Positions 23,636-42,272 of a DNA stretch of 64,000 nucleotides are shown piece after piece. Source of the stretch: Hydrurus foetidus (taxonomy: Eukaryota). How positions within the stretch are numbered: position 1 is the first letter of the stretch; each line of letters begins with the position of its first letter. The notes below the pieces were generated by a model that saw only the letters and a list, made by a program, of their open reading frames with translations, was not told where the DNA came from and searched no databases. The position numbers and the translations under genes are program-made. The DNA is taken from assembly GCA_900617105.1 (NCBI GenBank), contig UYFQ01000001.1, positions 1,178,001-1,242,000 of the forward strand. The letters are read 5' to 3'.

Positions 23636-23667
23636 TGCGTATTTTGCAACCCTATTGAAAGCCCATC

Positions 23668-25092: not shown

Positions 25093-25141
25093 GTAAGCTC
25101 ATCCCGCAAACACATTTGGCCAAGCACTGGGCAATGCGTTT

Positions 25142-26422
25142 GTGGACAACGCCAGGAGCGCCGGGACGCAGGAAGATTCGCTCGACCAGCTTCTGCGCCA
25201 GAACAATAACTTTGCGGGGGTTCAAGTAGGCGGAAATAGTTACGCACCTGGGCAAATGGGTTCGGGCAGCTTTGGCATGGATGACTATGCGTCTATTCCG
25301 AGGTTTGCGGGGACAAGTCCTGTCGGGGGTGCAGACGTTAACGGTGACAGCCCGAACTACTTGCGCGGTAACTTGAATGTTCTGGGCAATGTGAATGTGG
25401 GCGCTGATCCGTATGGGCTAGCCGCTCAGGACGATATGTCGCGCACGGTCACGATAGGGAAAAACCAAGGCGTTTTGGCTGCACTGGGTGCCGCAGGCTA
25501 CACATCGGCTGAGGCCAAGGCTTACTACGGCCAGATGATCGCCAGCGGGCAAATTGGGCGCAATGGCATTGTGCAGCCAGGCCAGGAGCTGAGCTTCACG
25601 GCGGACGACTTCAGTCAGTCCAAGCTGGGCGGCAGGGCTATTGCGGCTGAGAGTGCATACCGGGCTGAGCGCATGGCCGTGGCTGTGCAATCCGCAACCC
25701 GCTTGTCTGAGTGGGGCGACAGCACGACCGTGATTGCTGGGCTTGGGCTGCCTTCACAGGCAAGCCGATCAGCCGTTGACCAAATTCCTACGGGTGGATA
25801 TGCCTACGCGCCGCCAGCGAAAAATGCACCTGAAGGCTTCTTTGGTCAGGTAGCGGGTGCGATTGACAGATTCAATAACACGGGCCTTGGTCAGGCGCTC
25901 CAAGGTTTGCCGCCCGAAGGCTTTATCCTTGGTGCTGTCAAATCAGGGGTGAACTTCCTTGGCAAGGCGGAGCGGGTTGCGGCTGAGTTGGGAGCGGGTG
26001 AGCGAGCAACTGGCAGTGGAAAGACGGTCACTTTGTATCGAGTTGATGATGCTGGATTTGCCCCACGCATCGCTGCCGATGGTTCTGTCCCCGTGGTAAC
26101 TACGGGCTCTGGTAGTGAGCGTGCTTTGTTTGTCAACATTGGGCAACCATTGCGAGCACAAGAGTTTGCATTGATTAATAGAAACGGCAACGCCACCGTT
26201 ACCGCTGTTGATGTCGATGTCTCATTACTCGAAGAGCTGCGGGCGACGTCCGTCTATGACAAGAGTGCAGCTACTAAATTAAATCCAACAGCGCCTTTAA
26301 GAGTTGATATCAACAAGGCTCCAGATCAATTTGGTCTAAGAACTCCTCAGCAAATTCAGATGCTGAGAGATGCAATTAATCCATCAACAGTCAGGATTGT
26401 TGATCCCAGGACTTTGAGGTAA
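25142..26422 (+). pseudogene. Orphan C-terminal fragment of a large YD/LysM-type polymorphic toxin
   Basis: Frame is open back to a TAA at 25094-96 and reads ANTFGQALGNAFVD; no RBS before GTG 25142; LysM-like RTVTIGKNQG...IVQPGQELSF; AT-richer tip followed 5 bp later by a small ORF. Confidence 0.6.
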
Positions 26423-26427
26423 CAGAG

Positions 26428-26763
26428 ATGAATTCGACAAAAGTTTTTATTATTCCTGTGCATGTCACACGTTTGGAAAAATCCATCATGCCGACGGATC
26501 TCTCGGAAGCTTATGTAAGCTGCTACACGACTGGGACTACCTACGTCGATGCTGCGAAACGAGTGCTTGGCAGATTGTCAGATGATGGGTTGCATGCGCA
26601 AAAAATCCTTCAGCCTGTGTATGAAATGAATGCCGATGATTGGGCTGACCATGTCAAAGAAAAATGGATGCAATACGCCAGCTCTTTACCCAGTCAAATC
26701 GAATTTAAAGAAGCAATGCAGAACGATAAAGTGGTGTATGGGCCATTTGGATCAATGGCATAA
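26428..26763 (+). CDS. Putative immunity protein (copy 1)
   Basis: 111-aa low-GC ORF directly after the toxin tip; function inferred from position. Confidence 0.6.
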   Translation: MNSTKVFIIPVHVTRLEKSIMPTDLSEAYVSCYTTGTTYVDAAKRVLGRLSDDGLHAQKILQPVYEMNADDWADHVKEKWMQYASSLPSQIEFKEAMQNDKVVYGPFGSMA

Positions 26764-27360
26764 CGTCGCAGCGGTCGTGATATCTTGCAACCATCTTTCT
26801 TTGGGCAACAGTGCCATAGCACGCACCATATCGCCTTCACTGACAAGCGCATGAACCTCACCGGCCAGTGGCGTCACATCCGTGATTCGTTGCGTCCACT
26901 GATTCACATACAGCGGCACAGCCTCTTTGCTGAGACCAATTTGAATAGCGCGGTGAGGCAACGGGTTATGGTGCAAATCCCGCTCCGGGTCCCATTGGAC
27001 GCGCACCGGGCAAGTTTGCTTGAGCGCGGTGTACGCTTCGTCAGACATACCCGGCGGTGAATGACTTGGGCAGCTGTGCGCCAATGCCCATTCAAAGCCG
27101 TCGCGGCTGATGTCGATGGCAAGAATGCGGCTCTGACCTGTATCCTTGAACCCCCAACCTGCCCGGTACATCATCCACAAGAACGATGGCTTGATCCAGG
27201 TCATGCGCTCCAACTTGAAAGGCGGCGAAACAAAACGGCCATGACGCAGCGCTGAATCGGCAATTGAATCTGAATAGGCTTGATAAACCCGAATTGTGGT
27301 GTCGTCATAGACCGCACGGATTTGCCGAGGTGGCACAGCAGAGATTGCGGTATCGTGCAT
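26752..27360 (-). CDS. DUF4291-family protein (copy 1)
   Basis: IRAVYDDTTIRVYQAY, RMTWIKPSFLWMMYRAGW, VRVQWDPERD, RAIQIGL. Confidence 0.85.
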   Translation of the reverse strand: MHDTAISAVPPRQIRAVYDDTTIRVYQAYSDSIADSALRHGRFVSPPFKLERMTWIKPSFLWMMYRAGWGFKDTGQSRILAIDISRDGFEWALAHSCPSHSPPGMSDEAYTALKQTCPVRVQWDPERDLHHNPLPHRAIQIGLSKEAVPLYVNQWTQRITDVTPLAGEVHALVSEGDMVRAMALLPKERWLQDITTAATLCH

Positions 27361-27995
27361 CACTTCCTCCCCTTAGCCGCGCTGCCGCTGGCGCGTCCCG
27401 TGGCCTTGGGTTTCTTCTCCTCCTGTGGCACAAACCCAATAGGCCGCTTGGGTGGCTCAGGCGGCGTCATCAGGTCGCGCAAGGCATCGAACACCTGCTT
27501 GAGCTGGTTGCGCGTATTGCGGCTAAAGGTATCGTGCTGCAGCTCCAGGCTCTCGGTCTTCATCTCCAGCTCGGCCAGCCGCTTGGCCAAATCCTCATGC
27601 AGCGCGGCCGCCTGGCGCAGCCGCACAAAGGCCCGCACCACATAGACCGATACCTCCATGGCGTGGGCCGTGTTCAGCACCATCGCTGCCATGATCGCGC
27701 CGTGTTCGGTGAACACGTAGGGCAGGTACTTGCGATGCTGCCCACGCCCCGTCTTTAAGGTCGCAAATTGCGACCTTAAAGCATCGGCCTCTTCGAGCGA
27801 CATCTGAAACATGAAGTCCGCCGGAAAGCGCATTGCATTGCGCTTGACCTGCTCATTCAGGCGCTTGGTCTGCACACCATAGAGCGCAGCCAAGTCCGCA
27901 TCCAGCATTACCCGCTGGCCGCGCAACACTGCAATGCTCAGAGAAATGCTCTCCACCGCAGGCGCCACGGCCACGGCTGCTGGTGCCGCGCTCAT
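27360..27995 (-). CDS. ORF6N-domain DNA-binding protein (copy 1)
   Basis: RGQRVMLDADLAALYGV, QVKRN..RFPADFMFQ, PYVFTEHGAIMAA, KRPIGF. Confidence 0.9.
   Translation of the reverse strand: MSAAPAAVAVAPAVESISLSIAVLRGQRVMLDADLAALYGVQTKRLNEQVKRNAMRFPADFMFQMSLEEADALRSQFATLKTGRGQHRKYLPYVFTEHGAIMAAMVLNTAHAMEVSVYVVRAFVRLRQAAALHEDLAKRLAELEMKTESLELQHDTFSRNTRNQLKQVFDALRDLMTPPEPPKRPIGFVPQEEKKPKATGRASGSAAKGRK
27753..27781. repeat. 29-bp intragenic palindrome in the ORF6N gene (second copy 34987-35015)
   Basis: CTTTAAGGTCGCAA-A-TTGCGACCTTAAAG. Confidence 0.9.
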
Positions 27996-28396
27996 GCGGC
28001 GTGCGCGGCAACGGCGCGCTTAGTGGCACGCCGGGCTACCGTGGAGGGCTTGCCCATGGCTTTCTCCACCATCGACTTCTTCACAAAGCTGTCGATCACC
28101 AGAATCAGCGCCTGCTGCTCTTGATCGGGCAAGACATCCGCCTGCTGCCAAAGCGAATTCAGTGAATGGTTGCGAATGCGCGCCTCACCACTCATGGGTT
28201 TGCGACCCACCAATTCATCAAGAGACACCTGTAATACATCGGCAATCTTGACCAGCGTATCCAGGTGCGGCGCGATGGTTCCACGCTCCCAGCGGTTGTA
28301 AGCCCGGGGGTCAACCGCAATCAATTCGGCCAATCGAATCTGCGTCAACTGACGAGACTCCCTCAGCAAGCGCAAGCGCTCTGCAAACTCAGACAT
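27992..28396 (-). CDS. XRE-family HTH regulator (copy 1), divergent from the primase gene
   Basis: FAERLRLLRESRQLTQIRLAELI..YNRWERG..PHLDTLVKIADVLQVSLDELVG; start could lie further upstream. Confidence 0.88.
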   Translation of the reverse strand: MSEFAERLRLLRESRQLTQIRLAELIAVDPRAYNRWERGTIAPHLDTLVKIADVLQVSLDELVGRKPMSGEARIRNHSLNSLWQQADVLPDQEQQALILVIDSFVKKSMVEKAMGKPSTVARRATKRAVAAHAA

Positions 28397-28448
28397 ATCA
28401 AACCCTGCATGCCAATAAAAGATGCTGGCGATCTTATGGGTCATATTT

Positions 28449-28502
28449 TTGACACCTTCCAAAAAACTTATTTAATGACGATAATATAATCTACATTAAT
28501 GT
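28449..28502 (+). promoter_or_regulatory. Candidate primase promoter/operator in the divergent AT-rich spacer
   Basis: TTGACA (28449-54)-N16-TTTAAT, TATAAT at 28485-90, palindrome ACATTAATGT at 28493-502. Confidence 0.4.
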
Positions 28503-28530
28503 CTATTGACAGCTTTTTGAATGGAAGACG

Positions 28531-31500
28531 ATGGCACGCATCCCGCAAACCGAGCTTGAGCGGCTAAAACAAGAGGTCAGCGTGCAGCGCCTGGTGGAGG
28601 CCTCCGGGGTGGAACTGAGGCGCGGCGGCAAAGACTTCACCGGCAAATGCCCCTTCCACGCGGATGAGACCGCGTCCTTGGTCATCACCCCGCACAAAAA
28701 CCTGTGGCACTGCTTTGGCTGCCAGATTGGTGGTGGTCCCATCGACTGGGTGATGAAACAGCGCGGGGTCTCGTTCAGGCACGCGGTGGAGCTGCTCAAG
28801 GAGGAACTGGCGGGCAGTGGTGGCGGTGGTGTAGGTGGAGCTGTGGGAGCCCATTCCTCTTTAGCCGCCGATCCCCAGGACGCTGGTGCGCCGCTCAAAC
28901 GCACCACCACCCGTTCAACCGTGCGCACGCTGAGCGCGCCCGTCGCCTTCGACGCCGACGACCAGGCGCTGCTGCGCCAGACGGTGGCCTACTACCACCA
29001 GCGCCTCAAGACCTCGCCCGAAGCGCTGGCCTACCTCGCCAGCCGAGGCTTGGACCATCCCGGCCTGATCGACGCCTTCTGCTTGGGTGTGGCCGACCGC
29101 ACCCTGGGCCTGTCTTTGCCGCTTAAAAACCGCAAAGACGGTGCCGCCATCAGAGAGCGGCTGCAAGCCATTGGCCTGATCCGCGAGAGCGGGCACGAAC
29201 ACTTCAATGGCTCGCTGGTGGTGCCCGTGTTTGATACCGATAGCAACGTCACCGAGGTCTACGGCAGGAAGCTGCGCGACGACCTGCGCCCCGGCACCCC
29301 CAAGCACCTGTACCTGCCCGGGCCACATGCCGGGGTGTTCAACCTCGCGGGCGTGGTGGCCGCAGGGCAGCGGGAGTCGGGCCAGCGCGAAGTGATCCTG
29401 TGCGAGGCGCTGATCGACGCCATGACATTCTGGTGCGCGGGCTTCACCAACGTGACAAGCAGCTACGGCATAGAGGGCTTTACCGACGACATCCTGGCCA
29501 CGCTCAAGGCCAACCAGATCGAGCGCATCCTGATCGCCTACGACCGCGACGCCCCCGGCGAGAAGGCCGTGGCCAAGCTGGTGCCGGTGCTGATGGCTGA
29601 AGGCTTCGAGGTGCTGCAAGTGCTGTTCCCCTTGGGAATGGACGCCAATGCGTTTGCTTGCAAGATGCAACCCGCCGAGCAGAGTCTGGCCCTGGTGCTC
29701 AGGCAGGCGGTTTGGCTGGGCGGGGTGCCGCCTGTCGGGCCTGAGCCGCAAGCGGTGCCGACAAAACAGCCGCCACCGCTTGGGCCAGCACCTTCTTCTT
29801 TAGCCGCTGGACCAGCGCCAGCAGAGCAAATTACCGAACAAAACAGGTCATTCCCGCAATTCCCGCCTGCGCAGCCAGCTATGCAAACCATAGCGCCGTC
29901 TGCCACCATGCTCGCACAAGCCCCTGGCGCTCTTGGCGAACTTCCCGACGAGCTGCACCTGAGCACAGGCGAAGGACTGGGCGCACTCTCGTGGCGCATC
30001 CGTGGCTGGAAGAAGAACACCACCCCTGAGGCCATGCGCGTGAACGTGCAGGTGCGCCGGGGAGATGCGCCAGCGCACAGCGCCGTCGCCCAAGCGCTGT
30101 GCGCGGCCGGGTACTTCGTGGACACGCTCGATCTCTTTGCCGCCAAGAGCCGACACTCCTTCGTGCGCGCCGCGTCTGTTGAACTCGGCCTGTCCGAGGA
30201 CGCCGTCAAACGCGAACTCGGTGCGGTGCTGCTGCGCCTGGAGAGCCTGCAAGACGAACTGATGGCCCAGGCCAGGAAGCCCGCGGGGCCTGCTGTGCCG
30301 ATTCTCTCAGCCGACGAAGAACAAGCCGCCCTGGCCCTCTTGCGCTCGCCCGACCTGATGAGTCGCATCGTGTCAGACCTGCACGCCCTCGGTGTGGTCG
30401 GCGAAGACGTGAACCTATCTGCCGCGTACCTGGCAGCCGTCAGCCGCAAGCTCGACACCCCGCTGGCCATCCTGATCCAGTCCACCAGCGCCGCAGGCAA
30501 GTCTGCCCTCATGGATGCCGTTCTCAGCCTCATGCCCGAAGAAGAAACCTTGCGCTATTCGGCCATGACAGGCCAGTCCCTGTACTACCTGGGCGAGAAC
30601 AACCTGAGCCACAAAATCCTCGCCATCAGCGAAGAAGAAGGCGTGCGACAAGCCGCCTATGCCTTGAAGCTGCTGCAGTCTGAGGGCACCCTGACCATCG
30701 CCAGCACCGCCAAAGACGAACAGACAGGCAACCTTGTCACCAAGCAGTACAGCGTGCGCGGCCCGGTGATGCTCATGCTCACCACCACGGCCATCGACGT
30801 GGACGAGGAACTCTTGAACCGATGCTTGGTGCTCAGCGTGAACGAAAGCCGAGAACAAACGGCGGCGATCCACCAGCGCCAGCGGCACAAGCAAACGCTG
30901 CAAGGCCTGCTCCAAGGCGCAGAAAAGGCGGCCATCACAGCGCTGCACCACAACGCCCAGCGCCTCTTGAGTTCGGTCGCCGTGGTCAACCCCTACGCCG
31001 ACCAGTTGACCTTCCTCAGCGACAAGACCCGCACCCGGCGCGACCACATGAAATACCTCACTCTGATACGTGCCATAGCCTTGCTGCACCAGCACCAGCG
31101 GCCCGTCAAGACGGTGGCGCACCGTGGGCAAGAGCTGGCCTACATCGAAGTCACCAAGGCCGACATTGCACTGGCCAACAGCATCGCGCACCAGGTGCTG
31201 GGCAGGACGCTCGATGAATTGCCACCGCAAACCCGCAACCTCTTGGTGCTGCTGCGCAGCTGGTGCCAAACCCAGTGCAAGGCCCAGGGCCTGCACCAAA
31301 GTCTGCATCAGAAGGAATGGCGCTTCACCCGCAAGGCCTTGCGTGCGCACTGCCACTGGGGCGACACCCAGCTCAAGGTGCACTTAGGCCGACTGGTGGA
31401 GTTCGAGCACGTGCTGATGCACAGAAAAGGCCTGCAATGCGATTACGAGCTGGTCTATGACGCAGACCAGGGCAGCAGTGCGCACATGAACGGTCTGCTG

Positions 31501-31782
31501 GACGCCAGCACCTTGGAAGAAAATCATGCGCAGCCACATGCCTATGACGCAACCCGGTCGGTGTCAAACGCCATTCAGTCGGTGCCCGGTCGGCCCTGGG
31601 TCGGGGGTCAGTCGGTGACTGGTCGGGGTGGGGTAAACAGGCTGCCAACCCGCATGGATGCTCAGCATTCGGCCCATTCGCCCATCAACGGCTTCAAAAC
31701 GCAGAGTACAGGCACCTCTTCTGACGCCTATTCTTTAGCCGCTGATCCTGCCGTAGGCATATCTGCCAGCCAGGAGGCTTGA
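28531..31782 (+). CDS. CHC2 zinc finger + Toprim primase fused to a P-loop helicase-like ATPase (copy 1)
   Basis: CPFH...WHCFGC; ILCEALID...AYDRD; Walker-A-like STSAAGKS, Walker-B-like ILAISEEEG, ELLNRC. Confidence 0.9.
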   Translation: MARIPQTELERLKQEVSVQRLVEASGVELRRGGKDFTGKCPFHADETASLVITPHKNLWHCFGCQIGGGPIDWVMKQRGVSFRHAVELLKEELAGSGGGGVGGAVGAHSSLAADPQDAGAPLKRTTTRSTVRTLSAPVAFDADDQALLRQTVAYYHQRLKTSPEALAYLASRGLDHPGLIDAFCLGVADRTLGLSLPLKNRKDGAAIRERLQAIGLIRESGHEHFNGSLVVPVFDTDSNVTEVYGRKLRDDLRPGTPKHLYLPGPHAGVFNLAGVVAAGQRESGQREVILCEALIDAMTFWCAGFTNVTSSYGIEGFTDDILATLKANQIERILIAYDRDAPGEKAVAKLVPVLMAEGFEVLQVLFPLGMDANAFACKMQPAEQSLALVLRQAVWLGGVPPVGPEPQAVPTKQPPPLGPAPSSLAAGPAPAEQITEQNRSFPQFPPAQPAMQTIAPSATMLAQAPGALGELPDELHLSTGEGLGALSWRIRGWKKNTTPEAMRVNVQVRRGDAPAHSAVAQALCAAGYFVDTLDLFAAKSRHSFVRAASVELGLSEDAVKRELGAVLLRLESLQDELMAQARKPAGPAVPILSADEEQAALALLRSPDLMSRIVSDLHALGVVGEDVNLSAAYLAAVSRKLDTPLAILIQSTSAAGKSALMDAVLSLMPEEETLRYSAMTGQSLYYLGENNLSHKILAISEEEGVRQAAYALKLLQSEGTLTIASTAKDEQTGNLVTKQYSVRGPVMLMLTTTAIDVDEELLNRCLVLSVNESREQTAAIHQRQRHKQTLQGLLQGAEKAAITALHHNAQRLLSSVAVVNPYADQLTFLSDKTRTRRDHMKYLTLIRAIALLHQHQRPVKTVAHRGQELAYIEVTKADIALANSIAHQVLGRTLDELPPQTRNLLVLLRSWCQTQCKAQGLHQSLHQKEWRFTRKALRAHCHWGDTQLKVHLGRLVEFEHVLMHRKGLQCDYELVYDADQGSSAHMNGLLDASTLEENHAQPHAYDATRSVSNAIQSVPGRPWVGGQSVTGRGGVNRLPTRMDAQHSAHSPINGFKTQSTGTSSDAYSLAADPAVGISASQEA

Positions 31783-33656
31783 GCGTGCCCATGCCTGCCA
31801 CCAAGCCTGTGCCCACGCCCAAGAAATCGCGCACCCAGCGCCAGCGCCCAGCGGCGCGCAAGCTACAACGCGCCGGGCGCTTCAGTAGCCCAGGCTACGC
31901 TCGCTCGGTGGGCGCGCCAGGTGACCTGCGCGGCCTGTTTGCCGCCATGCGTCGCTTCTTGGACAACCGAGCCATGCTGGGCTCGACAGCGCAAGGCATT
32001 TACGGCTTTGAGCGCAACATCCGGGACTTCATCCTCTGGGCCGATGACAGAGGCGTGACCCACCCGCAGCAGGTGAGCCGCCAGGTCTTGGAGCGCTACC
32101 AGCGCTGGCTGTACCACTACCGCAAGAAGGACGGCGAGCCGCTGCACGTCAGAACCCAGCGCGGCAAGATCACGCCGCTTAAAACCTTCTTCCGCTGGCT
32201 GACCAAGACGGCCGAGATCCCGGCCAACCCGGCAGCCGATCTCGATCTGCCCCGAGACATTCGCACCATTCCCAGAAAAATCCTCAGCGCCGAGGAGGCC
32301 GAGGTCGTGCTGAGCCTGCCTGACACCGGCACGCTGACGGGCCTGCGAGACCGGGCCATGATGGAAGTGCTGTACGCCAGCGGCATACGCCGCATGGAGA
32401 TCGCCCAACTGGCCACTGACGACATTGACCAGGCCACCTGTGCGCTGCTGGTGCGCCAGGGCAAGGGCCAGAAAGACCGGCTCGTGCCGCTAGGCGCGCG
32501 CGCTTTGCACTGGGTCAACCGCTACCTCGAAGAGGCCAGGCCTCAATTGGCTTGGGACGCCAATGACAAGACCTTGTTCCTGGGCATGAGTGGACGGCCT
32601 CTGAGCGCCAATGGGCTGTCCACCTGTGTGGCCGAGTACATCAAACGCGCCGACATCGGCAAGAGCGGCGGCTGCCACCTGTGGCGGCACACCATGGCAA
32701 CGCTCATGTTGGAGGGCGGCGCGGACATCCGATTCATTCAGGCCATGCTGGGACATTCGGATATCAGCAGCACGCAGATTTACACGCAGGTGGCGATAAG
32801 GCAGCTCACCCAGGTGCATGCGCTGACGCATCCGGGGGTGAGTTTGCGCAAGGCAGAGGAGGAGAGGGCGACAGCGCCAAGCCAGAGTGCATACCGGGCT
32901 GAGCGCATGGCCGTGGCTGTGCAATCCGCAACCCGCTTGTCTGAGTGGGGCGACAGCACGACCGTGATTGCTGGGCTTGGGCTGCCTTCACAGGCAAGCC
33001 GATCAGCCGTTGACCAAATTCCTACGGGTGGATATGCCTACGCGCCGCCAGCGAAAAATGCACCTGAAGGCTTCTTTGGTCAGGTAGCGGGTGCGATTGA
33101 CAGATTCAATAACACGGGCCTTGGTCAGGCGCTCCAAGGTTTGCCGCCCGAAGGCTTTATCCTTGGTGCTGTCAAATCAGGGGTGAACTTCCTTGGCAAG
33201 GCGGAGCGGGTTGCGGCTGAGTTGGGAGCGGGTGAGCGAGCAACTGGCAGTGGAAAGACGGTCACTTTGTATCGAGTTGATGATGCTGGATTTGCCCCAC
33301 GCATCGCTGCCGATGGTTCTGTCCCCGTGGTAACTACGGGCTCTGGTAGTGAGCGTGCTTTGTTTGTCAACATTGGGCAACCATTGCGAGCACAAGAGTT
33401 TGCATTGATTAATAGAAACGGCAACGCCACCGTTACCGCTGTTGATGTCGATGTCTCATTACTCGAAGAGCTGCGGGCGACGTCCGTCTATGACAAGAGT
33501 GCAGCTACTAAATTAAATCCAACAGCGCCTTTAAGAGTTGATATCAACAAGGCTCCAGATCAATTTGGTCTAAGAACTCCTCAGCAAATTCAGATGCTGA
33601 GAGATGCAATTAATCCATCAACAGTCAGGATTGTTGATCCCAGGACTTTGAGGTAA
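31779..33656 (+). CDS. Chimeric ORF: tyrosine recombinase residues 1-369 fused in frame to the last 256 aa of the toxin fragment
   Basis: Junction ...ATAPSQ|SAYRAERM... at 32885/32886; catalytic motifs GIRR, GKG, HLWRH, LGH, TQIY all retained. Confidence 0.88.
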   Translation: MSVPMPATKPVPTPKKSRTQRQRPAARKLQRAGRFSSPGYARSVGAPGDLRGLFAAMRRFLDNRAMLGSTAQGIYGFERNIRDFILWADDRGVTHPQQVSRQVLERYQRWLYHYRKKDGEPLHVRTQRGKITPLKTFFRWLTKTAEIPANPAADLDLPRDIRTIPRKILSAEEAEVVLSLPDTGTLTGLRDRAMMEVLYASGIRRMEIAQLATDDIDQATCALLVRQGKGQKDRLVPLGARALHWVNRYLEEARPQLAWDANDKTLFLGMSGRPLSANGLSTCVAEYIKRADIGKSGGCHLWRHTMATLMLEGGADIRFIQAMLGHSDISSTQIYTQVAIRQLTQVHALTHPGVSLRKAEEERATAPSQSAYRAERMAVAVQSATRLSEWGDSTTVIAGLGLPSQASRSAVDQIPTGGYAYAPPAKNAPEGFFGQVAGAIDRFNNTGLGQALQGLPPEGFILGAVKSGVNFLGKAERVAAELGAGERATGSGKTVTLYRVDDAGFAPRIAADGSVPVVTTGSGSERALFVNIGQPLRAQEFALINRNGNATVTAVDVDVSLLEELRATSVYDKSAATKLNPTAPLRVDINKAPDQFGLRTPQQIQMLRDAINPSTVRIVDPRTLR

Positions 33657-33661
33657 CAGAG

Positions 33662-33997
33662 ATGAATTCGACAAAAGTTTTTATTATTCCTGTGCATGTC
33701 ACACGTTTGGAAAAATCCATCATGCCGACGGATCTCTCGGAAGCTTATGTAAGCTGCTACACGACTGGGACTACCTACGTCGATGCTGCGAAACGAGTGC
33801 TTGGCAGATTGTCAGATGATGGGTTGCATGCGCAAAAAATCCTTCAGCCTGTGTATGAAATGAATGCCGATGATTGGGCTGACCATGTCAAAGAAAAATG
33901 GATGCAATACGCCAGCTCTTTACCCAGTCAAATCGAATTTAAAGAAGCAATGCAGAACGATAAAGTGGTGTATGGGCCATTTGGATCAATGGCATAA
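33662..33997 (+). CDS. Putative immunity protein (copy 2)
   Basis: Identical translation to 26428-26763. Confidence 0.6.
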   Translation: MNSTKVFIIPVHVTRLEKSIMPTDLSEAYVSCYTTGTTYVDAAKRVLGRLSDDGLHAQKILQPVYEMNADDWADHVKEKWMQYASSLPSQIEFKEAMQNDKVVYGPFGSMA

Positions 33998-34594
33998 CGT
34001 CGCAGCGGTCGTGATATCTTGCAACCATCTTTCTTTGGGCAACAGTGCCATAGCACGCACCATATCGCCTTCACTGACAAGCGCATGAACCTCACCGGCC
34101 AGTGGCGTCACATCCGTGATTCGTTGCGTCCACTGATTCACATACAGCGGCACAGCCTCTTTGCTGAGACCAATTTGAATAGCGCGGTGAGGCAACGGGT
34201 TATGGTGCAAATCCCGCTCCGGGTCCCATTGGACGCGCACCGGGCAAGTTTGCTTGAGCGCGGTGTACGCTTCGTCAGACATACCCGGCGGTGAATGACT
34301 TGGGCAGCTGTGCGCCAATGCCCATTCAAAGCCGTCGCGGCTGATGTCGATGGCAAGAATGCGGCTCTGACCTGTATCCTTGAACCCCCAACCTGCCCGG
34401 TACATCATCCACAAGAACGATGGCTTGATCCAGGTCATGCGCTCCAACTTGAAAGGCGGCGAAACAAAACGGCCATGACGCAGCGCTGAATCGGCAATTG
34501 AATCTGAATAGGCTTGATAAACCCGAATTGTGGTGTCGTCATAGACCGCACGGATTTGCCGAGGTGGCACAGCAGAGATTGCGGTATCGTGCAT
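33986..34594 (-). CDS. DUF4291-family protein (copy 2)
   Basis: Identical to copy 1. Confidence 0.85.
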   Translation of the reverse strand: MHDTAISAVPPRQIRAVYDDTTIRVYQAYSDSIADSALRHGRFVSPPFKLERMTWIKPSFLWMMYRAGWGFKDTGQSRILAIDISRDGFEWALAHSCPSHSPPGMSDEAYTALKQTCPVRVQWDPERDLHHNPLPHRAIQIGLSKEAVPLYVNQWTQRITDVTPLAGEVHALVSEGDMVRAMALLPKERWLQDITTAATLCH

Positions 34595-35229
34595 CACTTC
34601 CTCCCCTTAGCCGCGCTGCCGCTGGCGCGTCCCGTGGCCTTGGGTTTCTTCTCCTCCTGTGGCACAAACCCAATAGGCCGCTTGGGTGGCTCAGGCGGCG
34701 TCATCAGGTCGCGCAAGGCATCGAACACCTGCTTGAGCTGGTTGCGCGTATTGCGGCTAAAGGTATCGTGCTGCAGCTCCAGGCTCTCGGTCTTCATCTC
34801 CAGCTCGGCCAGCCGCTTGGCCAAATCCTCATGCAGCGCGGCCGCCTGGCGCAGCCGCACAAAGGCCCGCACCACATAGACCGATACCTCCATGGCGTGG
34901 GCCGTGTTCAGCACCATCGCTGCCATGATCGCGCCGTGTTCGGTGAACACGTAGGGCAGGTACTTGCGATGCTGCCCACGCCCCGTCTTTAAGGTCGCAA
35001 ATTGCGACCTTAAAGCATCGGCCTCTTCGAGCGACATCTGAAACATGAAGTCCGCCGGAAAGCGCATTGCATTGCGCTTGACCTGCTCATTCAGGCGCTT
35101 GGTCTGCACACCATAGAGCGCAGCCAAGTCCGCATCCAGCATTACCCGCTGGCCGCGCAACACTGCAATGCTCAGAGAAATGCTCTCCACCGCAGGCGCC
35201 ACGGCCACGGCTGCTGGTGCCGCGCTCAT
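34594..35229 (-). CDS. ORF6N-domain protein (copy 2)
   Basis: Identical to copy 1. Confidence 0.9.
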   Translation of the reverse strand: MSAAPAAVAVAPAVESISLSIAVLRGQRVMLDADLAALYGVQTKRLNEQVKRNAMRFPADFMFQMSLEEADALRSQFATLKTGRGQHRKYLPYVFTEHGAIMAAMVLNTAHAMEVSVYVVRAFVRLRQAAALHEDLAKRLAELEMKTESLELQHDTFSRNTRNQLKQVFDALRDLMTPPEPPKRPIGFVPQEEKKPKATGRASGSAAKGRK

Positions 35230-35630
35230 GCGGCGTGCGCGGCAACGGCGCGCTTAGTGGCACGCCGGGCTACCGTGGAGGGCTTGCCCATGGCTTTCTC
35301 CACCATCGACTTCTTCACAAAGCTGTCGATCACCAGAATCAGCGCCTGCTGCTCTTGATCGGGCAAGACATCCGCCTGCTGCCAAAGCGAATTCAGTGAA
35401 TGGTTGCGAATGCGCGCCTCACCACTCATGGGTTTGCGACCCACCAATTCATCAAGAGACACCTGTAATACATCGGCAATCTTGACCAGCGTATCCAGGT
35501 GCGGCGCGATGGTTCCACGCTCCCAGCGGTTGTAAGCCCGGGGGTCAACCGCAATCAATTCGGCCAATCGAATCTGCGTCAACTGACGAGACTCCCTCAG
35601 CAAGCGCAAGCGCTCTGCAAACTCAGACAT
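35226..35630 (-). CDS. XRE-family HTH regulator (copy 2)
   Basis: Identical to copy 1. Confidence 0.88.
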   Translation of the reverse strand: MSEFAERLRLLRESRQLTQIRLAELIAVDPRAYNRWERGTIAPHLDTLVKIADVLQVSLDELVGRKPMSGEARIRNHSLNSLWQQADVLPDQEQQALILVIDSFVKKSMVEKAMGKPSTVARRATKRAVAAHAA

Positions 35631-35764
35631 ATCAAACCCTGCATGCCAATAAAAGATGCTGGCGATCTTATGGGTCATATTTTTGACACCTTCCAAAAAA
35701 CTTATTTAATGACGATAATATAATCTACATTAATGTCTATTGACAGCTTTTTGAATGGAAGACG

Positions 35765-38700
35765 ATGGCACGCATCCCGCAAACCGAGCTTGAGCGGCTA
35801 AAACAAGAGGTCAGCGTGCAGCGCCTGGTGGAGGCCTCCGGGGTGGAACTGAGGCGCGGCGGCAAAGACTTCACCGGCAAATGCCCCTTCCACGCGGATG
35901 AGACCGCGTCCTTGGTCATCACCCCGCACAAAAACCTGTGGCACTGCTTTGGCTGCCAGATTGGTGGTGGTCCCATCGACTGGGTGATGAAACAGCGCGG
36001 GGTCTCGTTCAGGCACGCGGTGGAGCTGCTCAAGGAGGAACTGGCGGGCAGTGGTGGCGGTGGTGTAGGTGGAGCTGTGGGAGCCCATTCCTCTTTAGCC
36101 GCCGATCCCCAGGACGCTGGTGCGCCGCTCAAACGCACCACCACCCGTTCAACCGTGCGCACGCTGAGCGCGCCCGTCGCCTTCGACGCCGACGACCAGG
36201 CGCTGCTGCGCCAGACGGTGGCCTACTACCACCAGCGCCTCAAGACCTCGCCCGAAGCGCTGGCCTACCTCGCCAGCCGAGGCTTGGACCATCCCGGCCT
36301 GATCGACGCCTTCTGCTTGGGTGTGGCCGACCGCACCCTGGGCCTGTCTTTGCCGCTTAAAAACCGCAAAGACGGTGCCGCCATCAGAGAGCGGCTGCAA
36401 GCCATTGGCCTGATCCGCGAGAGCGGGCACGAACACTTCAATGGCTCGCTGGTGGTGCCCGTGTTTGATACCGATAGCAACGTCACCGAGGTCTACGGCA
36501 GGAAGCTGCGCGACGACCTGCGCCCCGGCACCCCCAAGCACCTGTACCTGCCCGGGCCACATGCCGGGGTGTTCAACCTCGCGGGCGTGGTGGCCGCAGG
36601 GCAGCGGGAGTCGGGCCAGCGCGAAGTGATCCTGTGCGAGGCGCTGATCGACGCCATGACATTCTGGTGCGCGGGCTTCACCAACGTGACAAGCAGCTAC
36701 GGCATAGAGGGCTTTACCGACGACATCCTGGCCACGCTCAAGGCCAACCAGATCGAGCGCATCCTGATCGCCTACGACCGCGACGCCCCCGGCGAGAAGG
36801 CCGTGGCCAAGCTGGTGCCGGTGCTGATGGCTGAAGGCTTCGAGGTGCTGCAAGTGCTGTTCCCCTTGGGAATGGACGCCAATGCGTTTGCTTGCAAGAT
36901 GCAACCCGCCGAGCAGAGTCTGGCCCTGGTGCTCAGGCAGGCGGTTTGGCTGGGCGGGGTGCCGCCTGTCGGGCCTGAGCCGCAAGCGGTGCCGACAAAA
37001 CAGCCGCCACCGCTTGGGCCAGCACCTTCTTCTTTAGCCGCTGGACCAGCGCCAGCAGAGCAAATTACCGAACAAAACAGGTCATTCCCGCAATTCCCGC
37101 CTGCGCAGCCAGCTATGCAAACCATAGCGCCGTCTGCCACCATGCTCGCACAAGCCCCTGGCGCTCTTGGCGAACTTCCCGACGAGCTGCACCTGAGCAC
37201 AGGCGAAGGACTGGGCGCACTCTCGTGGCGCATCCGTGGCTGGAAGAAGAACACCACCCCTGAGGCCATGCGCGTGAACGTGCAGGTGCGCCGGGGAGAT
37301 GCGCCAGCGCACAGCGCCGTCGCCCAAGCGCTGTGCGCGGCCGGGTACTTCGTGGACACGCTCGATCTCTTTGCCGCCAAGAGCCGACACTCCTTCGTGC
37401 GCGCCGCGTCTGTTGAACTCGGCCTGTCCGAGGACGCCGTCAAACGCGAACTCGGTGCGGTGCTGCTGCGCCTGGAGAGCCTGCAAGACGAACTGATGGC
37501 CCAGGCCAGGAAGCCCGCGGGGCCTGCTGTGCCGATTCTCTCAGCCGACGAAGAACAAGCCGCCCTGGCCCTCTTGCGCTCGCCCGACCTGATGAGTCGC
37601 ATCGTGTCAGACCTGCACGCCCTCGGTGTGGTCGGCGAAGACGTGAACCTATCTGCCGCGTACCTGGCAGCCGTCAGCCGCAAGCTCGACACCCCGCTGG
37701 CCATCCTGATCCAGTCCACCAGCGCCGCAGGCAAGTCTGCCCTCATGGATGCCGTTCTCAGCCTCATGCCCGAAGAAGAAACCTTGCGCTATTCGGCCAT
37801 GACAGGCCAGTCCCTGTACTACCTGGGCGAGAACAACCTGAGCCACAAAATCCTCGCCATCAGCGAAGAAGAAGGCGTGCGACAAGCCGCCTATGCCTTG
37901 AAGCTGCTGCAGTCTGAGGGCACCCTGACCATCGCCAGCACCGCCAAAGACGAACAGACAGGCAACCTTGTCACCAAGCAGTACAGCGTGCGCGGCCCGG
38001 TGATGCTCATGCTCACCACCACGGCCATCGACGTGGACGAGGAACTCTTGAACCGATGCTTGGTGCTCAGCGTGAACGAAAGCCGAGAACAAACGGCGGC
38101 GATCCACCAGCGCCAGCGGCACAAGCAAACGCTGCAAGGCCTGCTCCAAGGCGCAGAAAAGGCGGCCATCACAGCGCTGCACCACAACGCCCAGCGCCTC
38201 TTGAGTTCGGTCGCCGTGGTCAACCCCTACGCCGACCAGTTGACCTTCCTCAGCGACAAGACCCGCACCCGGCGCGACCACATGAAATACCTCACTCTGA
38301 TACGTGCCATAGCCTTGCTGCACCAGCACCAGCGGCCCGTCAAGACGGTGGCGCACCGTGGGCAAGAGCTGGCCTACATCGAAGTCACCAAGGCCGACAT
38401 TGCACTGGCCAACAGCATCGCGCACCAGGTGCTGGGCAGGACGCTCGATGAATTGCCACCGCAAACCCGCAACCTCTTGGTGCTGCTGCGCAGCTGGTGC
38501 CAAACCCAGTGCAAGGCCCAGGGCCTGCACCAAAGTCTGCATCAGAAGGAATGGCGCTTCACCCGCAAGGCCTTGCGTGCGCACTGCCACTGGGGCGACA
38601 CCCAGCTCAAGGTGCACTTAGGCCGACTGGTGGAGTTCGAGCACGTGCTGATGCACAGAAAAGGCCTGCAATGCGATTACGAGCTGGTCTATGACGCAGA

Positions 38701-39016
38701 CCAGGGCAGCAGTGCGCACATGAACGGTCTGCTGGACGCCAGCACCTTGGAAGAAAATCATGCGCAGCCACATGCCTATGACGCAACCCGGTCGGTGTCA
38801 AACGCCATTCAGTCGGTGCCCGGTCGGCCCTGGGTCGGGGGTCAGTCGGTGACTGGTCGGGGTGGGGTAAACAGGCTGCCAACCCGCATGGATGCTCAGC
38901 ATTCGGCCCATTCGCCCATCAACGGCTTCAAAACGCAGAGTACAGGCACCTCTTCTGACGCCTATTCTTTAGCCGCTGATCCTGCCGTAGGCATATCTGC
39001 CAGCCAGGAGGCTTGA
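35765..39016 (+). CDS. CHC2/Toprim primase-helicase (copy 2)
   Basis: Identical to copy 1. Confidence 0.9.
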   Translation: MARIPQTELERLKQEVSVQRLVEASGVELRRGGKDFTGKCPFHADETASLVITPHKNLWHCFGCQIGGGPIDWVMKQRGVSFRHAVELLKEELAGSGGGGVGGAVGAHSSLAADPQDAGAPLKRTTTRSTVRTLSAPVAFDADDQALLRQTVAYYHQRLKTSPEALAYLASRGLDHPGLIDAFCLGVADRTLGLSLPLKNRKDGAAIRERLQAIGLIRESGHEHFNGSLVVPVFDTDSNVTEVYGRKLRDDLRPGTPKHLYLPGPHAGVFNLAGVVAAGQRESGQREVILCEALIDAMTFWCAGFTNVTSSYGIEGFTDDILATLKANQIERILIAYDRDAPGEKAVAKLVPVLMAEGFEVLQVLFPLGMDANAFACKMQPAEQSLALVLRQAVWLGGVPPVGPEPQAVPTKQPPPLGPAPSSLAAGPAPAEQITEQNRSFPQFPPAQPAMQTIAPSATMLAQAPGALGELPDELHLSTGEGLGALSWRIRGWKKNTTPEAMRVNVQVRRGDAPAHSAVAQALCAAGYFVDTLDLFAAKSRHSFVRAASVELGLSEDAVKRELGAVLLRLESLQDELMAQARKPAGPAVPILSADEEQAALALLRSPDLMSRIVSDLHALGVVGEDVNLSAAYLAAVSRKLDTPLAILIQSTSAAGKSALMDAVLSLMPEEETLRYSAMTGQSLYYLGENNLSHKILAISEEEGVRQAAYALKLLQSEGTLTIASTAKDEQTGNLVTKQYSVRGPVMLMLTTTAIDVDEELLNRCLVLSVNESREQTAAIHQRQRHKQTLQGLLQGAEKAAITALHHNAQRLLSSVAVVNPYADQLTFLSDKTRTRRDHMKYLTLIRAIALLHQHQRPVKTVAHRGQELAYIEVTKADIALANSIAHQVLGRTLDELPPQTRNLLVLLRSWCQTQCKAQGLHQSLHQKEWRFTRKALRAHCHWGDTQLKVHLGRLVEFEHVLMHRKGLQCDYELVYDADQGSSAHMNGLLDASTLEENHAQPHAYDATRSVSNAIQSVPGRPWVGGQSVTGRGGVNRLPTRMDAQHSAHSPINGFKTQSTGTSSDAYSLAADPAVGISASQEA

Positions 39017-40224
39017 GCGTGCCCATGCCTGCCACCAAGCCTGTGCCCACGCCCAAGAAATCGCGCACCCAGCGCCAGCGCCCAGCGGCGCGCAAGCTAC
39101 AACGCGCCGGGCGCTTCAGTAGCCCAGGCTACGCTCGCTCGGTGGGCGCGCCAGGTGACCTGCGCGGCCTGTTTGCCGCCATGCGTCGCTTCTTGGACAA
39201 CCGAGCCATGCTGGGCTCGACAGCGCAAGGCATTTACGGCTTTGAGCGCAACATCCGGGACTTCATCCTCTGGGCCGATGACAGAGGCGTGACCCACCCG
39301 CAGCAGGTGAGCCGCCAGGTCTTGGAGCGCTACCAGCGCTGGCTGTACCACTACCGCAAGAAGGACGGCGAGCCGCTGCACGTCAGAACCCAGCGCGGCA
39401 AGATCACGCCGCTTAAAACCTTCTTCCGCTGGCTGACCAAGACGGCCGAGATCCCGGCCAACCCGGCAGCCGATCTCGATCTGCCCCGAGACATTCGCAC
39501 CATTCCCAGAAAAATCCTCAGCGCCGAGGAGGCCGAGGTCGTGCTGAGCCTGCCTGACACCGGCACGCTGACGGGCCTGCGAGACCGGGCCATGATGGAA
39601 GTGCTGTACGCCAGCGGCATACGCCGCATGGAGATCGCCCAACTGGCCACTGACGACATTGACCAGGCCACCTGTGCGCTGCTGGTGCGCCAGGGCAAGG
39701 GCCAGAAAGACCGGCTCGTGCCGCTAGGCGCGCGCGCTTTGCACTGGGTCAACCGCTACCTCGAAGAGGCCAGGCCTCAATTGGCTTGGGACGCCAATGA
39801 CAAGACCTTGTTCCTGGGCATGAGTGGACGGCCTCTGAGCGCCAATGGGCTGTCCACCTGTGTGGCCGAGTACATCAAACGCGCCGACATCGGCAAGAGC
39901 GGCGGCTGCCACCTGTGGCGGCACACCATGGCAACGCTCATGTTGGAGGGCGGCGCGGACATCCGATTCATTCAGGCCATGCTGGGACATTCGGATATCA
40001 GCAGCACGCAGATTTACACGCAGGTGGCGATAAGGCAGCTCACCCAGGTGCATGCGCTGACGCATCCGGGGGTGAGTTTGCGCAAGGCAGAGGAGGAGAG
40101 GGCGACAGCGCCAAGCCAGGCTGAGGGCATGCCAGGGCCTGAGCCCAAACAAATGGACGCTGTCAACGCGTTTCTAACGACTTTGGCGCGTGAGGCTGAG
40201 AACGACGGGGATGCACAGGGCTGA
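39013..40224 (+). CDS. XerC/D-like tyrosine recombinase, intact 403 aa
   Basis: RDRAMMEVLYASGIRRME, GKGQKDR, CHLWRHTMATLMLEGGADIRFIQAMLGH..ISSTQIYT. Confidence 0.93.
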   Translation: MSVPMPATKPVPTPKKSRTQRQRPAARKLQRAGRFSSPGYARSVGAPGDLRGLFAAMRRFLDNRAMLGSTAQGIYGFERNIRDFILWADDRGVTHPQQVSRQVLERYQRWLYHYRKKDGEPLHVRTQRGKITPLKTFFRWLTKTAEIPANPAADLDLPRDIRTIPRKILSAEEAEVVLSLPDTGTLTGLRDRAMMEVLYASGIRRMEIAQLATDDIDQATCALLVRQGKGQKDRLVPLGARALHWVNRYLEEARPQLAWDANDKTLFLGMSGRPLSANGLSTCVAEYIKRADIGKSGGCHLWRHTMATLMLEGGADIRFIQAMLGHSDISSTQIYTQVAIRQLTQVHALTHPGVSLRKAEEERATAPSQAEGMPGPEPKQMDAVNAFLTTLAREAENDGDAQG

Positions 40225-41019
40225 GGACGTGCAAGAGGCGGCGGGACGGCTGCGGCCCGAGGGGTCAATGCCAGGCGCTGGCGCGCAGGGCTGAGATGCA
40301 GGCCAGTCCGGGCATCGAGCCCGGCCTGGCCTGGCAGCGGCTGCGGGGTGAATGGCTTGCGCCATTCAACATAACGGGCTGTTGGGCAAAGTGTGCCCAG
40401 TCGCTGCGCTAAAGCTGCGCTTGGTGTGCCCACCGCTGCGGGCGCGGCCCTTGCGCCCTGGCGGGTTTACCCAACCCCCGTTATGTCTTGCGCCCACTTC
40501 GCCGCTGCGTGTTTGGCCTATGGCTCGGCAAGCCGTAGCCAAAAGCCAAACACCGGACAGCCATGGTCAGTGCGGCCACGGCACGCCGTCGCCGCAGGCA
40601 TTCTGGTCAGGCGCTTCGCGCAGTCCTTTGTGTTAGCCCCCGCCCACCCTGTGGGGCCGTTCGCTGCGCTCACAGGCCCACGCCGGGAATGGCCCGTCCG
40701 CCCCCCAAGGGGGCTCCCTCCATCCCGGCGTGGGGTCGGTGGCCTTGGCGTGTGCTGGTGGTGTGCGGGCTTCTTAGGTCACGGCTCGCTGCGCATCGCC
40801 GCGAAACCCCCATCCCTCAAAGGTGGCGAGGGTGCAGCAGCGGTGCCAGGCAGTCAAGGCCGCTGCGCGCCGCCTGGTGGCGGTGGCCTGCGGCCAGCCT
40901 TGACAGCCTGTCCCCGCCGCCGCCCGTGTCGCTCATGCGGGGTGGGGGTTCCCTGCACGCACAGCGTGCCAGGCCTCACACCTGTGTTCAACCACCGTCA
41001 GTTATTCAAGGAGATCTTT

Positions 41020-41295
41020 ATGCAACGCAAAACCAAACCAGCAACCAAGCCTGCAACCAAGGCCGTCACAAAACGCCTCACGCTGAGCCTGCCGCCTGAG
41101 TTCATGGCGCTGTGCCAGCGCGACGGCGTGCCGCCCGAGCTGGTGCTGCGCGGCTTCATTGCAGACCTGTGCGAGATCATGAGCTGGGCCGCCGATCCGC
41201 GCACGGACGGCTATTGCAGCAACGGCAGTGACGAGCGCCGCATGGCTGGCGACTATTACGAGCGCGTGGGCTACCCGTGGTGGAACAAGCCCTGA
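41020..41295 (+). CDS. Small hypothetical protein (91 aa)
   Basis: AAGGAG RBS before ATG 41020; ...VLRGFIADLC...SNGSDERR...YYERVGY; followed by a hairpin. Confidence 0.7.
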   Translation: MQRKTKPATKPATKAVTKRLTLSLPPEFMALCQRDGVPPELVLRGFIADLCEIMSWAADPRTDGYCSNGSDERRMAGDYYERVGYPWWNKP

Positions 41296-41305
41296 GTACA
41301 GCCAA

Positions 41306-41325
41306 GCACGGGCTGACGCCCGTGC
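41306..41325 (+). terminator. GC hairpin after the small ORF
   Basis: GCACGGGC-TGAC-GCCCGTGC; no U-tract. Confidence 0.4.
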
Positions 41326-41343
41326 AGATCGCTGCTGAAGCGG

Positions 41344-42003
41344 CTATGAACACCCGCAGCTAAAGAAGAACTGCCGCCATCCACCATCCTTCTTTAGCCG
41401 CCTGTCTGTGGTGCCTGTCGGCGCAAAACTGCACATCGCGCGCGCGTGCCAAAATCTGTCCATGCTCACCACCACCCATACCCGCAAACCCGCGCCAATG
41501 CTGGCGCGCCGGGGTATGCGACTACGAATTTGTGTCAGGCCAAATGCGTTCCGAAAAGCCTTGCCCTTCGCCGTGCGGTACACCGCAAAATCCGTCCGGT
41601 CGATGGTGATGATGTCTGTCACGCCCGTCTTGTTGGCCAGCCAGACCAGCGAAGCGTCTGCCAAGTCCATGGGGCGATCGGCGTATTTGCGCATCAGGGC
41701 GGACAAGCCGGGCAAGTCATCTGCGGCCAGTGAGGCGATGGTCATCAGTCCGTGGCGGTTGCCTGCGTCAAGCCAGTCGAGCAAATCACCTTGCAAAGTA
41801 GCGCTGAAATCCAAAAAGTACATCACTTCAGAAACCACTTCCCATGTGGTGTGGCAGCGCAAGTGGGCGCCCTGGATTTTGAAGAAGGCGTTGGCCCGCT
41901 CGTGGTGTTTGTCGCGTGGATTGAAAAGGGCGGCTAAAGGGCCGCTGTCGAGTAGTTTCGAGCCTGTGGCCAGCGTGGATGTGGTTATTCGTTTGGCAGT
42001 CAT
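41344..42003 (-). CDS. vapC: PIN-domain (VapC-like) toxin with an atypical ~65-aa C-terminal extension
   Basis: LLDSGPL, DKHH, VVSEVMYFL, KYADRPMDLADASL, ITIDRTDF. Confidence 0.82.
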   Translation of the reverse strand: MTAKRITTSTLATGSKLLDSGPLAALFNPRDKHHERANAFFKIQGAHLRCHTTWEVVSEVMYFLDFSATLQGDLLDWLDAGNRHGLMTIASLAADDLPGLSALMRKYADRPMDLADASLVWLANKTGVTDIITIDRTDFAVYRTAKGKAFRNAFGLTQIRSRIPRRASIGAGLRVWVVVSMDRFWHARAMCSFAPTGTTDRRLKKDGGWRQFFFSCGCS

Positions 42004-42005
42004 GC

Positions 42006-42272
42006 TCAGCGGTGTTTAGCTTGCAAGCGCTCGCGCACGATCTGTTTGATATGGGCGGACTGGCGCGTTGAGTCGCCCAGTATCTCTGTCGTTTGAGCCA
42101 TTTTCAGGTCGTACAAACTGACTGAAGTGGTCGGTGTGTCGTTTGCACTGACCATTTCGCGCAAAGCACGTTTCACCAAGTCTGATTTGCTCAAACCCGT
42201 TTGGGCGCGTAAACGGGTGACGATATCCACGTCGTCTTCGGTTAAGCGGAGGGTTAAAAATTGAGCGTTCAT
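42006..42272 (-). CDS. Ribbon-helix-helix antitoxin (CopG/VapB-like)
   Basis: LTLRLTEDD...TGLSKSDLVKRALRE; ends 2 bp before the PIN gene start. Confidence 0.78.
   Translation of the reverse strand: MNAQFLTLRLTEDDVDIVTRLRAQTGLSKSDLVKRALREMVSANDTPTTSVSLYDLKMAQTTEILGDSTRQSAHIKQIVRERLQAKHR

Follow-up and report, generated by a model that had tools for sequence, protein, structure and literature searches.

A predicted toxin-exchange element with its own primase-helicase and tyrosine recombinase, inserted in the last codons of a vapC gene

The DNA analysed here is a 64,000-nucleotide stretch of contig UYFQ01000001.1 (assembly GCA_900617105.1, Hydrurus foetidus), hereafter "the window". Positions 25115–41550 are occupied by an element with a unit length of 9.2 kb (9,200 bp), which starts with the headless C-terminus of a toxin, called hereafter "tip", and codes for a primase-helicase and a tyrosine recombinase. 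It is probably an integrative element, present at about two copies per chromosome, whose recombinase inserts it at conserved codons of polymorphic-toxin genes so that its own tip and likely immunity gene replace the tip of the host gene. It belongs to a widespread family, for which a putative role in swapping the tips of polymorphic toxins is well supported. More tentatively, the family may form an undescribed class of self-replicating elements that serve as predicted vehicles of toxin exchange, with recombinase clades specialised for Rhs, LysM-YD, CdiA or TpsA genes, rearming in one step, arrays, and integron-like, gene-free cassettes consisting of tip, immunity gene and right end. The features that carry the argument are the following.

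25115–25116, plus strand: left end, a 2-bp TT core common to the right end and the target; the 9,202-bp contig described below begins at 25115.
25115–26422, plus strand: headless toxin tip, whose frame opens exactly at the left end as FGQALGNAF; its first start codon is a GTG at 25142.
26428–26763, plus strand: likely immunity gene of 111 aa, so named from its position and low GC.
28531–31782, plus strand: CHC2-Toprim primase fused to an MCM-like AAA+ helicase, copy 1 (Pfam; 1,083 aa).
39013–40224, plus strand: intact tyrosine recombinase of the PRK01287 family (NCBI name XerC; PF00589, NF002331).
41438–41550, plus strand: right end, with motif TACGR...GYGTCR and then the crossover TT at 41549–41550; conserved in relatives.
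41549–42003, minus strand: host vapC (PIN) gene, cut by the insertion four codons ahead of the stop; an RHH antitoxin gene lies at 42006–42272.

The ends had been placed at 25093 and 41530 in an initial annotation made from the letters alone, and are corrected here to 25115 and 41550. The left and right junctions have exactly two bases in common, the TT core. Joining the flanks without the element gives a normal vapC end (KAFRNVFAG-stop), and all six of the closest vapC homologues (65–71% identity, drawn from the 17 of 401 genomes with a match) read NVF, followed by a stop one to eight residues later. Given the restored vapC end and the 2-bp core, the element therefore made a clean entry into the last vapC codons, without toxin homology. 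This copy is likely an off-target insertion, in which the usual AFGNALG target was missed and a look-alike in the last vapC codons was entered. The tip would thus stand here without a delivery protein in front of it because the element entered vapC, and not a toxin gene. Terminal inverted repeats were considered for the ends and dropped, the palindrome not being kept in the Rhs-targeting clades. Hidden Markov models (HMMs) of the right end had no match in shuffled sequences.

The recombinase scored 419 bits on NF002331 (cut-off 371), a model carried by 16 of 401 family genomes and by none of 14 controls, and its catalytic R-K-H-R-H-Y residues are invariant in relatives. As had been noticed at the outset, its gene overlaps that of a CHC2-Toprim protein with a P-loop domain; the overlap is 4 bp, and the P-loop domain has an MCM-like fold. 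This likeness came from a fold search, in which the model of the C-terminal part (pLDDT 77.5) had MCM subunits as its top Foldseek matches (E 1e-9); a sequence search of the PDB with the helicase profile returned nothing. Zinc, Toprim, Walker and arginine-finger residues of the primase-helicase are conserved across relatives.

An intact recombinase beside one end, precise ends, a short core, a restorable empty site and an end-to-end junction were all found, as in tyrosine-recombinase integrative elements. Most of the other classes considered were rejected. The recombinase fell under the cut-offs of housekeeping XerC (TIGR02224, 217 versus 335 bits) and XerD (TIGR02225, 220 versus 330), under that of integron integrases (TIGR02249, 113.5 versus 265, with no attC family in the Rfam scan), and far under that of GmtY from Gamma-Mobile-Trio (GMT) islands (17.9 versus 340; there is a single recombinase gene here). 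An integrative and conjugative or mobilizable element was set aside as well: no relaxase or conjugation gene was found among the element's open reading frames (ORFs) scanned, a scan that does not cover an oriT used in trans. Pfam and NCBIfam models were run on ten ORFs in and adjoining the element, and the absence of capsid, conjugation and relaxase genes claimed in the initial annotation held among them. These scans also gave no terminase or packaging-interference family of a phage satellite or prophage; PHROGs were not scanned, and packaging by a helper is possible. The primase had no match in 50,697 phage records and two loci in IMG/VR. Finally, an integrative mobile element exploiting Xer (CTXphi-like) would end at dif, whereas the ends here lie in vapC or toxin codons and the dif-like hairpin described below is internal.

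A headless toxin ORF after the boxB gene and a small partner had been proposed from the letters, and both were confirmed, the partner being low in GC. FGQALGNAF is a variant of the AFGNALG motif of LysM-YD toxins, and an in-frame stop lies six codons upstream of the tip frame. The C-terminal 137 aa of the tip also terminate proteins annotated as hemagglutinin, RHS and LysM. A model of this domain (pLDDT 84.9) has a predicted ADP-ribosyltransferase fold, its best structural match being the RhsP2 toxin domain 7rt7 (Z 10.3, rmsd 2.9, 111 aligned residues; next match Z 6.5). RhsP2 is an antibacterial RNA ADP-ribosyltransferase; a common fold does not show function. The 111-aa gene has a GC content of 0.435, versus about 0.59–0.60 in the flanks, four homologues and no Pfam family. 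With the same C-terminal domain on unrelated delivery proteins, a toxin fold and a small gene downstream, the two ORFs are likely a polymorphic toxin tip and its probable immunity partner, as judged from sequence and model.

Searches with the primase gave 72 genome loci, and searches with the recombinase 79 metagenome loci, the closest 35 of which were used. The expectation of the initial annotation, that the primase-recombinase pair is linked with toxin tips and tandem arrays, was borne out. Where the sequence is long enough (52 loci), the recombinase comes after the primase in 51, and 0.2–2.6 kb behind the recombinase there is a conserved right end. Among 67 right-end matches, one of which (L005) is a false positive, seven are at contig ends; in 53 of the 60 others a conserved toxin motif comes within a few codons after the right end, as it does at 35 of 5,000 random positions. 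The junction stands at a fixed distance from the right-end motif. Of 20 loci that extend 9 kb or more to one side, 7 contain a second copy (two of the seven belong to one array, and one is partial). A tree of 54 recombinases needs 11 changes of target motif (minimum 10, shuffled mean 31.3, 0/200) and likewise 11 changes of host family, which is known for 21 rows (minimum 8, shuffled 13.2). The window recombinase falls in a supported group of 21 rows; AFGNALG is the target in 18 of them, in agreement with its own tip.

The family occurs in Betaproteobacteria, Xanthomonadales, Pseudomonas and Escherichia coli, with matches in 60 of 5,426 complete E. coli genomes at near sensitivity. The helicase profile matches 2,952 cluster representatives at E≤1e-30, some of which may not be elements of this kind, and in a phylum-wide draw only 3 of 401 genomes match at E≤1e-50. 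In a plasmid collection, the recombinase has matches at E≤1e-60 in 11 Leptospira and 12 Ralstonia records. More distant relatives (L151, L159 and L163) have two recombinase genes after the primase, L151 being itself tandem, and one contig (G597:C78, 3136–12102) holds three helicase copies in 9 kb, in mixed orientation.

Insertions within toxin genes were found in the relatives: the reading frames of full-length Rhs, LysM-YD, CdiA and TpsA genes continue into the tip carried by the element, and beyond its right end stands another, different tip. In ten such cases the frame is open through the left junction for 212–4,589 codons; RHS_repeat was detected in seven of eight upstream ORFs scanned, and LysM also in two. 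The clearest case is G199, in which a gene of 4,926 aa passes into the tip at FGNALG, followed by two units of 8,016 bp and, behind the last right end, by an unrelated tip. The same order was seen in Rhs genes of G226 and L045, and in all three the first two tips are identical and the last is different. In E. coli ZYB39, cdiA is followed by a 7,797-bp repeat that terminates on 15 shared bases, the VVENN codons, and in E. coli EC77 four diverged units behind vgrG-rhs each end at DPIG codons. A Pseudomonas plasmid has an insertion in tpsA2, and an Enterobacter plasmid three units behind a hemagglutinin gene. Outside the core, the tip brought by the element is unrelated to the one it displaces, and the latter is kept, together with its partner, behind the element. 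Because the ends cut exactly at conserved toxin-gene codons, the element likely replaces the tip of the host toxin gene.

Exact cores were counted in 18 cases, four of which (G226, L184, L087, and L065, whose left site is a decayed right end) were not usable as computed. The others measured 2 (window), 8, 8, 11, 15, 19, 20, 21, 22, 26, 28, 32, 60 and 127 bp; read by eye, the core of L184 is 10 bp. Those of 8 bp belong to G199 and G396, that of 11 bp to L060 and that of 15 bp to E. coli ZYB39. The short cores in this series cannot support homologous recombination; the long ones can.

We propose that the recombinase would join the right end to the start of the tip, giving a circle, and that this circle would insert into a toxin gene of the host at the corresponding codons, for which a few bases in common would be enough. 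Integrases of the Tn916 and CTnDOT type tolerate mismatched crossover regions. The host gene would gain a new tip followed by the new immunity gene, and the old pair would be kept behind the element. As the insertion site is regenerated, repeated insertion, or replication by the primase-helicase, could build tandem arrays. The XRE repressor encoded by the element may hold replication down.

A three-unit array lies at G001:C1 1149000–1186000 (L073–L076), with a period of about 12.7 kb and a different tip-start motif, bounded by transposase-like genes. Extra right ends followed by Rhs tips were also seen at a spacing of about 1.1 kb, the DNA between them lacking both primase and recombinase (L031 8422–8516; L185 16174 and 17312); these stretches are possible non-autonomous tip-immunity cassettes.

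As assembled, the window contains one exact repeat, 25650–32885 being identical to 32884–40119 with a period of 7,234 bp, and three further features follow from it.

31779–33656, plus strand: recombinase copy 1, whose frame in the assembly passes into the toxin tip at 32884; this fusion is probably an artefact of assembly.
32884–40119, plus strand: second copy of 25650–32885, 100% identical.
35765–39016, plus strand: primase-helicase copy 2, within the second copy of the repeat.

Four sequencing runs overlap the stretch. Two are well covered and served for depth; X4 is too thin for depth, and X1 (share 0.06) is scattered and was left unused. Three runs, all from one study and possibly the source of the window, were compared with the window across 32884. 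In both well-covered runs, one contig of 9,202 bp extends from 25115 through 32885 and continues as 40120–41550. Its depth is 93 and 97, versus 44–53 in the flank contigs (ratios 1.93x and 1.95x). A 58-bp contig joins 41550 to 25115 with a depth of 59.5 and 54.6 (1.23x and 1.09x the flank), and no empty-site contig was found in either run. In all three runs the sequence ahead of 32884 is that of the native toxin, and the fusion is spanned by no contig. The unbroken long contig, the 58-bp junction and the lack of a contig over 32884 argue for a true unit of 9,200 bp, and the organism most likely has two whole units head to tail, 1,966 bp of which are lacking from the window. The amplified state claimed from the letters thus stands, at about two copies by contig depth, whereas the duplication as displayed is probably a misassembled form of a whole-element tandem, its 7,234-bp junction being present in none of the three runs. 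Since the runs may be the source of the window and contigs drop rare variants, their contigs are not independent support.

Behind the recombinase lies a structured non-coding stretch, already remarked upon in the first description of this DNA and confirmed here.

40362–40492, no strand assigned: conserved long fold-back hairpin, whose outer arm resembles the XerD arm of pdif sites.

Its DNA fold has a z of about −3. Of the 17 predicted pairs, compared among 37 sequences, 8 have changed on both sides and none on one side only, the outer pairs being fixed by the selection pattern used; a strict pattern retains the hairpin in 28 of 48 units. The outer arm is one base in 11 off the XerD arm of a published pdif site (PMC7315799). 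The Rfam scan gave only two sub-threshold chance matches and no family at this place, and searches of viral contigs, phages and plasmids with the hairpin were negative. The hairpin may serve in multimer resolution or as an origin. In L017 (6606, 7944) and L123 (6821, 7614), inverted pairs of the hairpin bracket about 1 kb of cargo. Within the set formed by these two loci, L023 and L056, where the sites lie behind the recombinase, two loci carry instead two adjacent simple dif-like sites, reminiscent of a pdif module.

Several points weigh against tip replacement by a site-specific recombinase. The motif test is partly circular: the toxin motif expression and the HMM seeds were chosen after seeing the sequences, and near-duplicates were included. 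A scan of the peptides with NCBIfam and a fresh draw of genomes were run for this reason. The scan covered 43 of 51 peptides, near-duplicates and two plasmid-record peptides being left out. TIGR03696 (Rhs core) matched 24 of 27 Rhs-type peptides at E≤0.01, 21 of them over the cut-off, and the 16 peptides of AFGNALG/GIGV type matched no toxin model in NCBIfam. The fresh sample consisted of 16 regions from 15 of the 16 NF002331-positive genomes (n=401), with HMMs fixed and cores read by eye. The primase was upstream in 15 of 16 regions; 13 right ends were found at E<0.01, one at a contig end, and a toxin core followed 11 of the 12 others; tandems were present in two of four long contigs. Four of the 16 regions, on short contigs, had no right end, nor did the right-end HMM match in four enterobacterial loci. 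Clustering of target labels on the recombinase tree is also what plain inheritance of junctions would give. That the recombinase makes the junctions is itself a likely deduction from the sequences, and the 19–127 exact bases shared in several in-gene cases are usable by homologous recombination. The empty vapC site is only a moderate look-alike, ranking 174th of 95,084 under a matrix from canonical targets. One integrated copy and about one circle would produce the same contig picture as a tandem, the second, Xer-like hairpin site is unexplained by the proposed scheme, and no means of cell-to-cell transfer is encoded.

The initial annotation favoured replication in situ: the primase-helicase would fire within the chromosome, and the extra copy would be an amplification product or a free circle, not a second insertion. 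Primase and MCM-like helicase are indeed intact, adjacent units are 99.8–100% identical in several genomes, and a circular "plasmid" record of 11,289 bp is made up of the element plus part of a second unit. This record may however be a circle or a collapsed tandem, and the depth close to the integer two, the junction at about 1x and the missing empty-site contig speak against this account of the window. Arrays with diverged units and different tips (L012, L025 and E. coli EC77) point to repeated insertion. We regard in-situ amplification as a somewhat doubtful account of the second copy.

A purely selfish island would use the same insertion mechanism as that proposed above and differs from it only in benefit: the toxin gene would be a safe landing site, the tip would repair the gene, and the toxin-immunity pair would act as an addiction module, with no competitive gain. 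In line with this, GMT islands that interrupt a gene often bring along a homologue of it (10.1101/2023.03.28.534373), relatives of the element carry RelE, SymE or PIN modules (no SymE match was found in the window copy by the Pfam and NCBIfam scans), and the window copy sits where its tip cannot be delivered. A mere repair of the gene fits poorly with a carried tip that is unrelated to the displaced one and with an old pair that stays behind, and we find it unlikely that the island is purely selfish.

The 7,234-bp duplication could also be real, having arisen in one clone by duplication at the 2-bp microhomology or by internal deletion, and thereby have made a recombinase-toxin fusion gene. 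It is displayed in the window, in frame, with seven bases beside the join alike on both sides; a rare variant could be dropped from contigs, and L016 has a partial duplication of similar kind. Against it, the join is crossed by no contig, the 9,202-bp contig is unbroken at both would-be branch points, and the whole-element junction is present at about 1x, which makes a real duplication quite improbable.

Displacement of tips by homologous recombination through the toxin core, as in the episome model of 2009, with primase and recombinase riding along or resolving multimers at the Xer-like hairpin, is favoured by the 9 of 18 cases with exact cores of 19–127 bp, by the pdif-like hairpin arms and by the orphan-tip fusion through recombination reported in Salmonella (Koskiniemi 2014, PMC3967940), but we hold it highly improbable in view of the 2-bp core in vapC without toxin homology, the 8–15 bp cores of G199, G396 and ZYB39 with only 52–57% identity over the next 60 bases, and the fixed distance between right-end motif and junction.

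The remaining genes of the element include the convergent XRE, ORF6N and DUF4291 genes named in the first description, which are present.

26752–27363, minus strand: DUF4291 protein, accessory cargo (PF14124, E 6e-69; in 1 of 72 related loci).
27360–27995, minus strand: ORF6N DNA-binding protein, accessory (PF10543, E 2e-32; in 15 of 72 related loci).
27992–28462, minus strand: XRE repressor, RstR-like, divergent from the primase gene (PF01381).
41020–41295, plus strand: small conserved ORF of 91 aa without a family, also found 3' of the recombinase in several relatives.

The XRE repressor reached 79.6 bits on NF041951, versus a cut-off of 80. The 91-aa ORF, whose ESM Atlas matches are unnamed clusters, is a candidate accessory or directionality factor. 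A promoter scan gave nothing above chance.

Around the element, 20304–25092 holds a box cluster (regulator, boxC-like and boxB genes), with a flavodoxin gene upstream at 20304–20873 and no boxA beside boxB among the ORFs scanned. A short intergenic repeat at 23558–23638 and 43778–43825 is taken as a high-copy REP-like element of the genome because of its contig depth of about 1,000. The 5' start and 3' end of tctC (48538–49524) are repeated as a joined fragment 1.4–2.2 kb away, around an FG-GAP gene (parts at 47168–47333, 48539–48574 and 49412–49540). An AbiEi/AbiEii type IV toxin-antitoxin pair lies at 16963–18479, within an aromatic-degradation cluster.

Since 2009 it has been asked how Rhs and CdiA genes acquire new tips and yet retain the former ones downstream. 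The proposals made in the portions of the literature consulted invoke episomal tip circles or integration, without a named vehicle, and the family described here is a candidate with ends, an enzyme and targets. The window is of value in that its off-target insertion displays a 2-bp crossover without toxin homology, and the family offers recombinases that apparently target coding motifs in frame. A description of the element was not found in the literature covered, which excludes most subscription journals, supplements and figures, so that a prior description is possible; the parts consulted of PMC3414803, PMC11606950, PMC11278526 and PMC10011098 are on other subjects, and a term search of PMC3150448 gave no mention.

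Jackson et al. 2009 (PMC2935791) predicted episomal tip circles, and in the sections available knew of no integrase with Rhs. In their model, as in ours, a circle with a core fragment and a tip enters rhs by one crossover and shunts the old tip downstream; the element here differs by its own recombinase and replication gene, its fixed ends and its cores of down to 2–15 bp. Ruhe et al. 2016 (PMC4927057) proposed that new modules integrate into cdiA and displace the old pair, and integrase genes were noted in the regions of orphan cdiA-CT/cdiI arrays. Displacement is common to both cases, whereas no element, ends or enzyme are defined in the text consulted; here the ends are at VVENN (ZYB39) and at Rhs and LysM-YD motifs. 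Zhang 2012 (PMC3482391) mentions XerC/D genes beside polyimmunity loci, and its Additional File 1, outside the part covered, may list such loci. Kawano, Aravind and Storz 2007 (PMC1891008) described, near RHS and haemagglutinin genes, a DnaG primase-MCM-like AAA+ helicase with a cI-type regulator. Their SymE-cHTH-Prim-Hel neighbourhoods are very likely the same loci as this family. They were presented as the context of SymE, in a text (Figure 7A not covered) without recombinase, ends, target or tip exchange.

GMT islands, in the part of their description available (10.1101/2023.03.28.534373), likewise are islands with a tyrosine recombinase that have circular forms, occupy specific sites in step with the recombinase tree and carry antibacterial cargo; they differ by their GmtXYZ core genes and by carrying whole effectors. 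They are the nearest tested analogue. Elements of the CTXphi/RS1 type exploit host Xer through a fold-back attP and encode RstR. The link between CTX and dif is treated in PMC7315799. An RstR-like repressor divergent from the replication gene, tandem arrays and a hairpin with dif-like arms are found in both. In contrast, the hairpin here lies inside the element, some 1.1 kb short of the end; the element terminates at toxin codons, and it encodes its own recombinase and primase-helicase and no phage genes.

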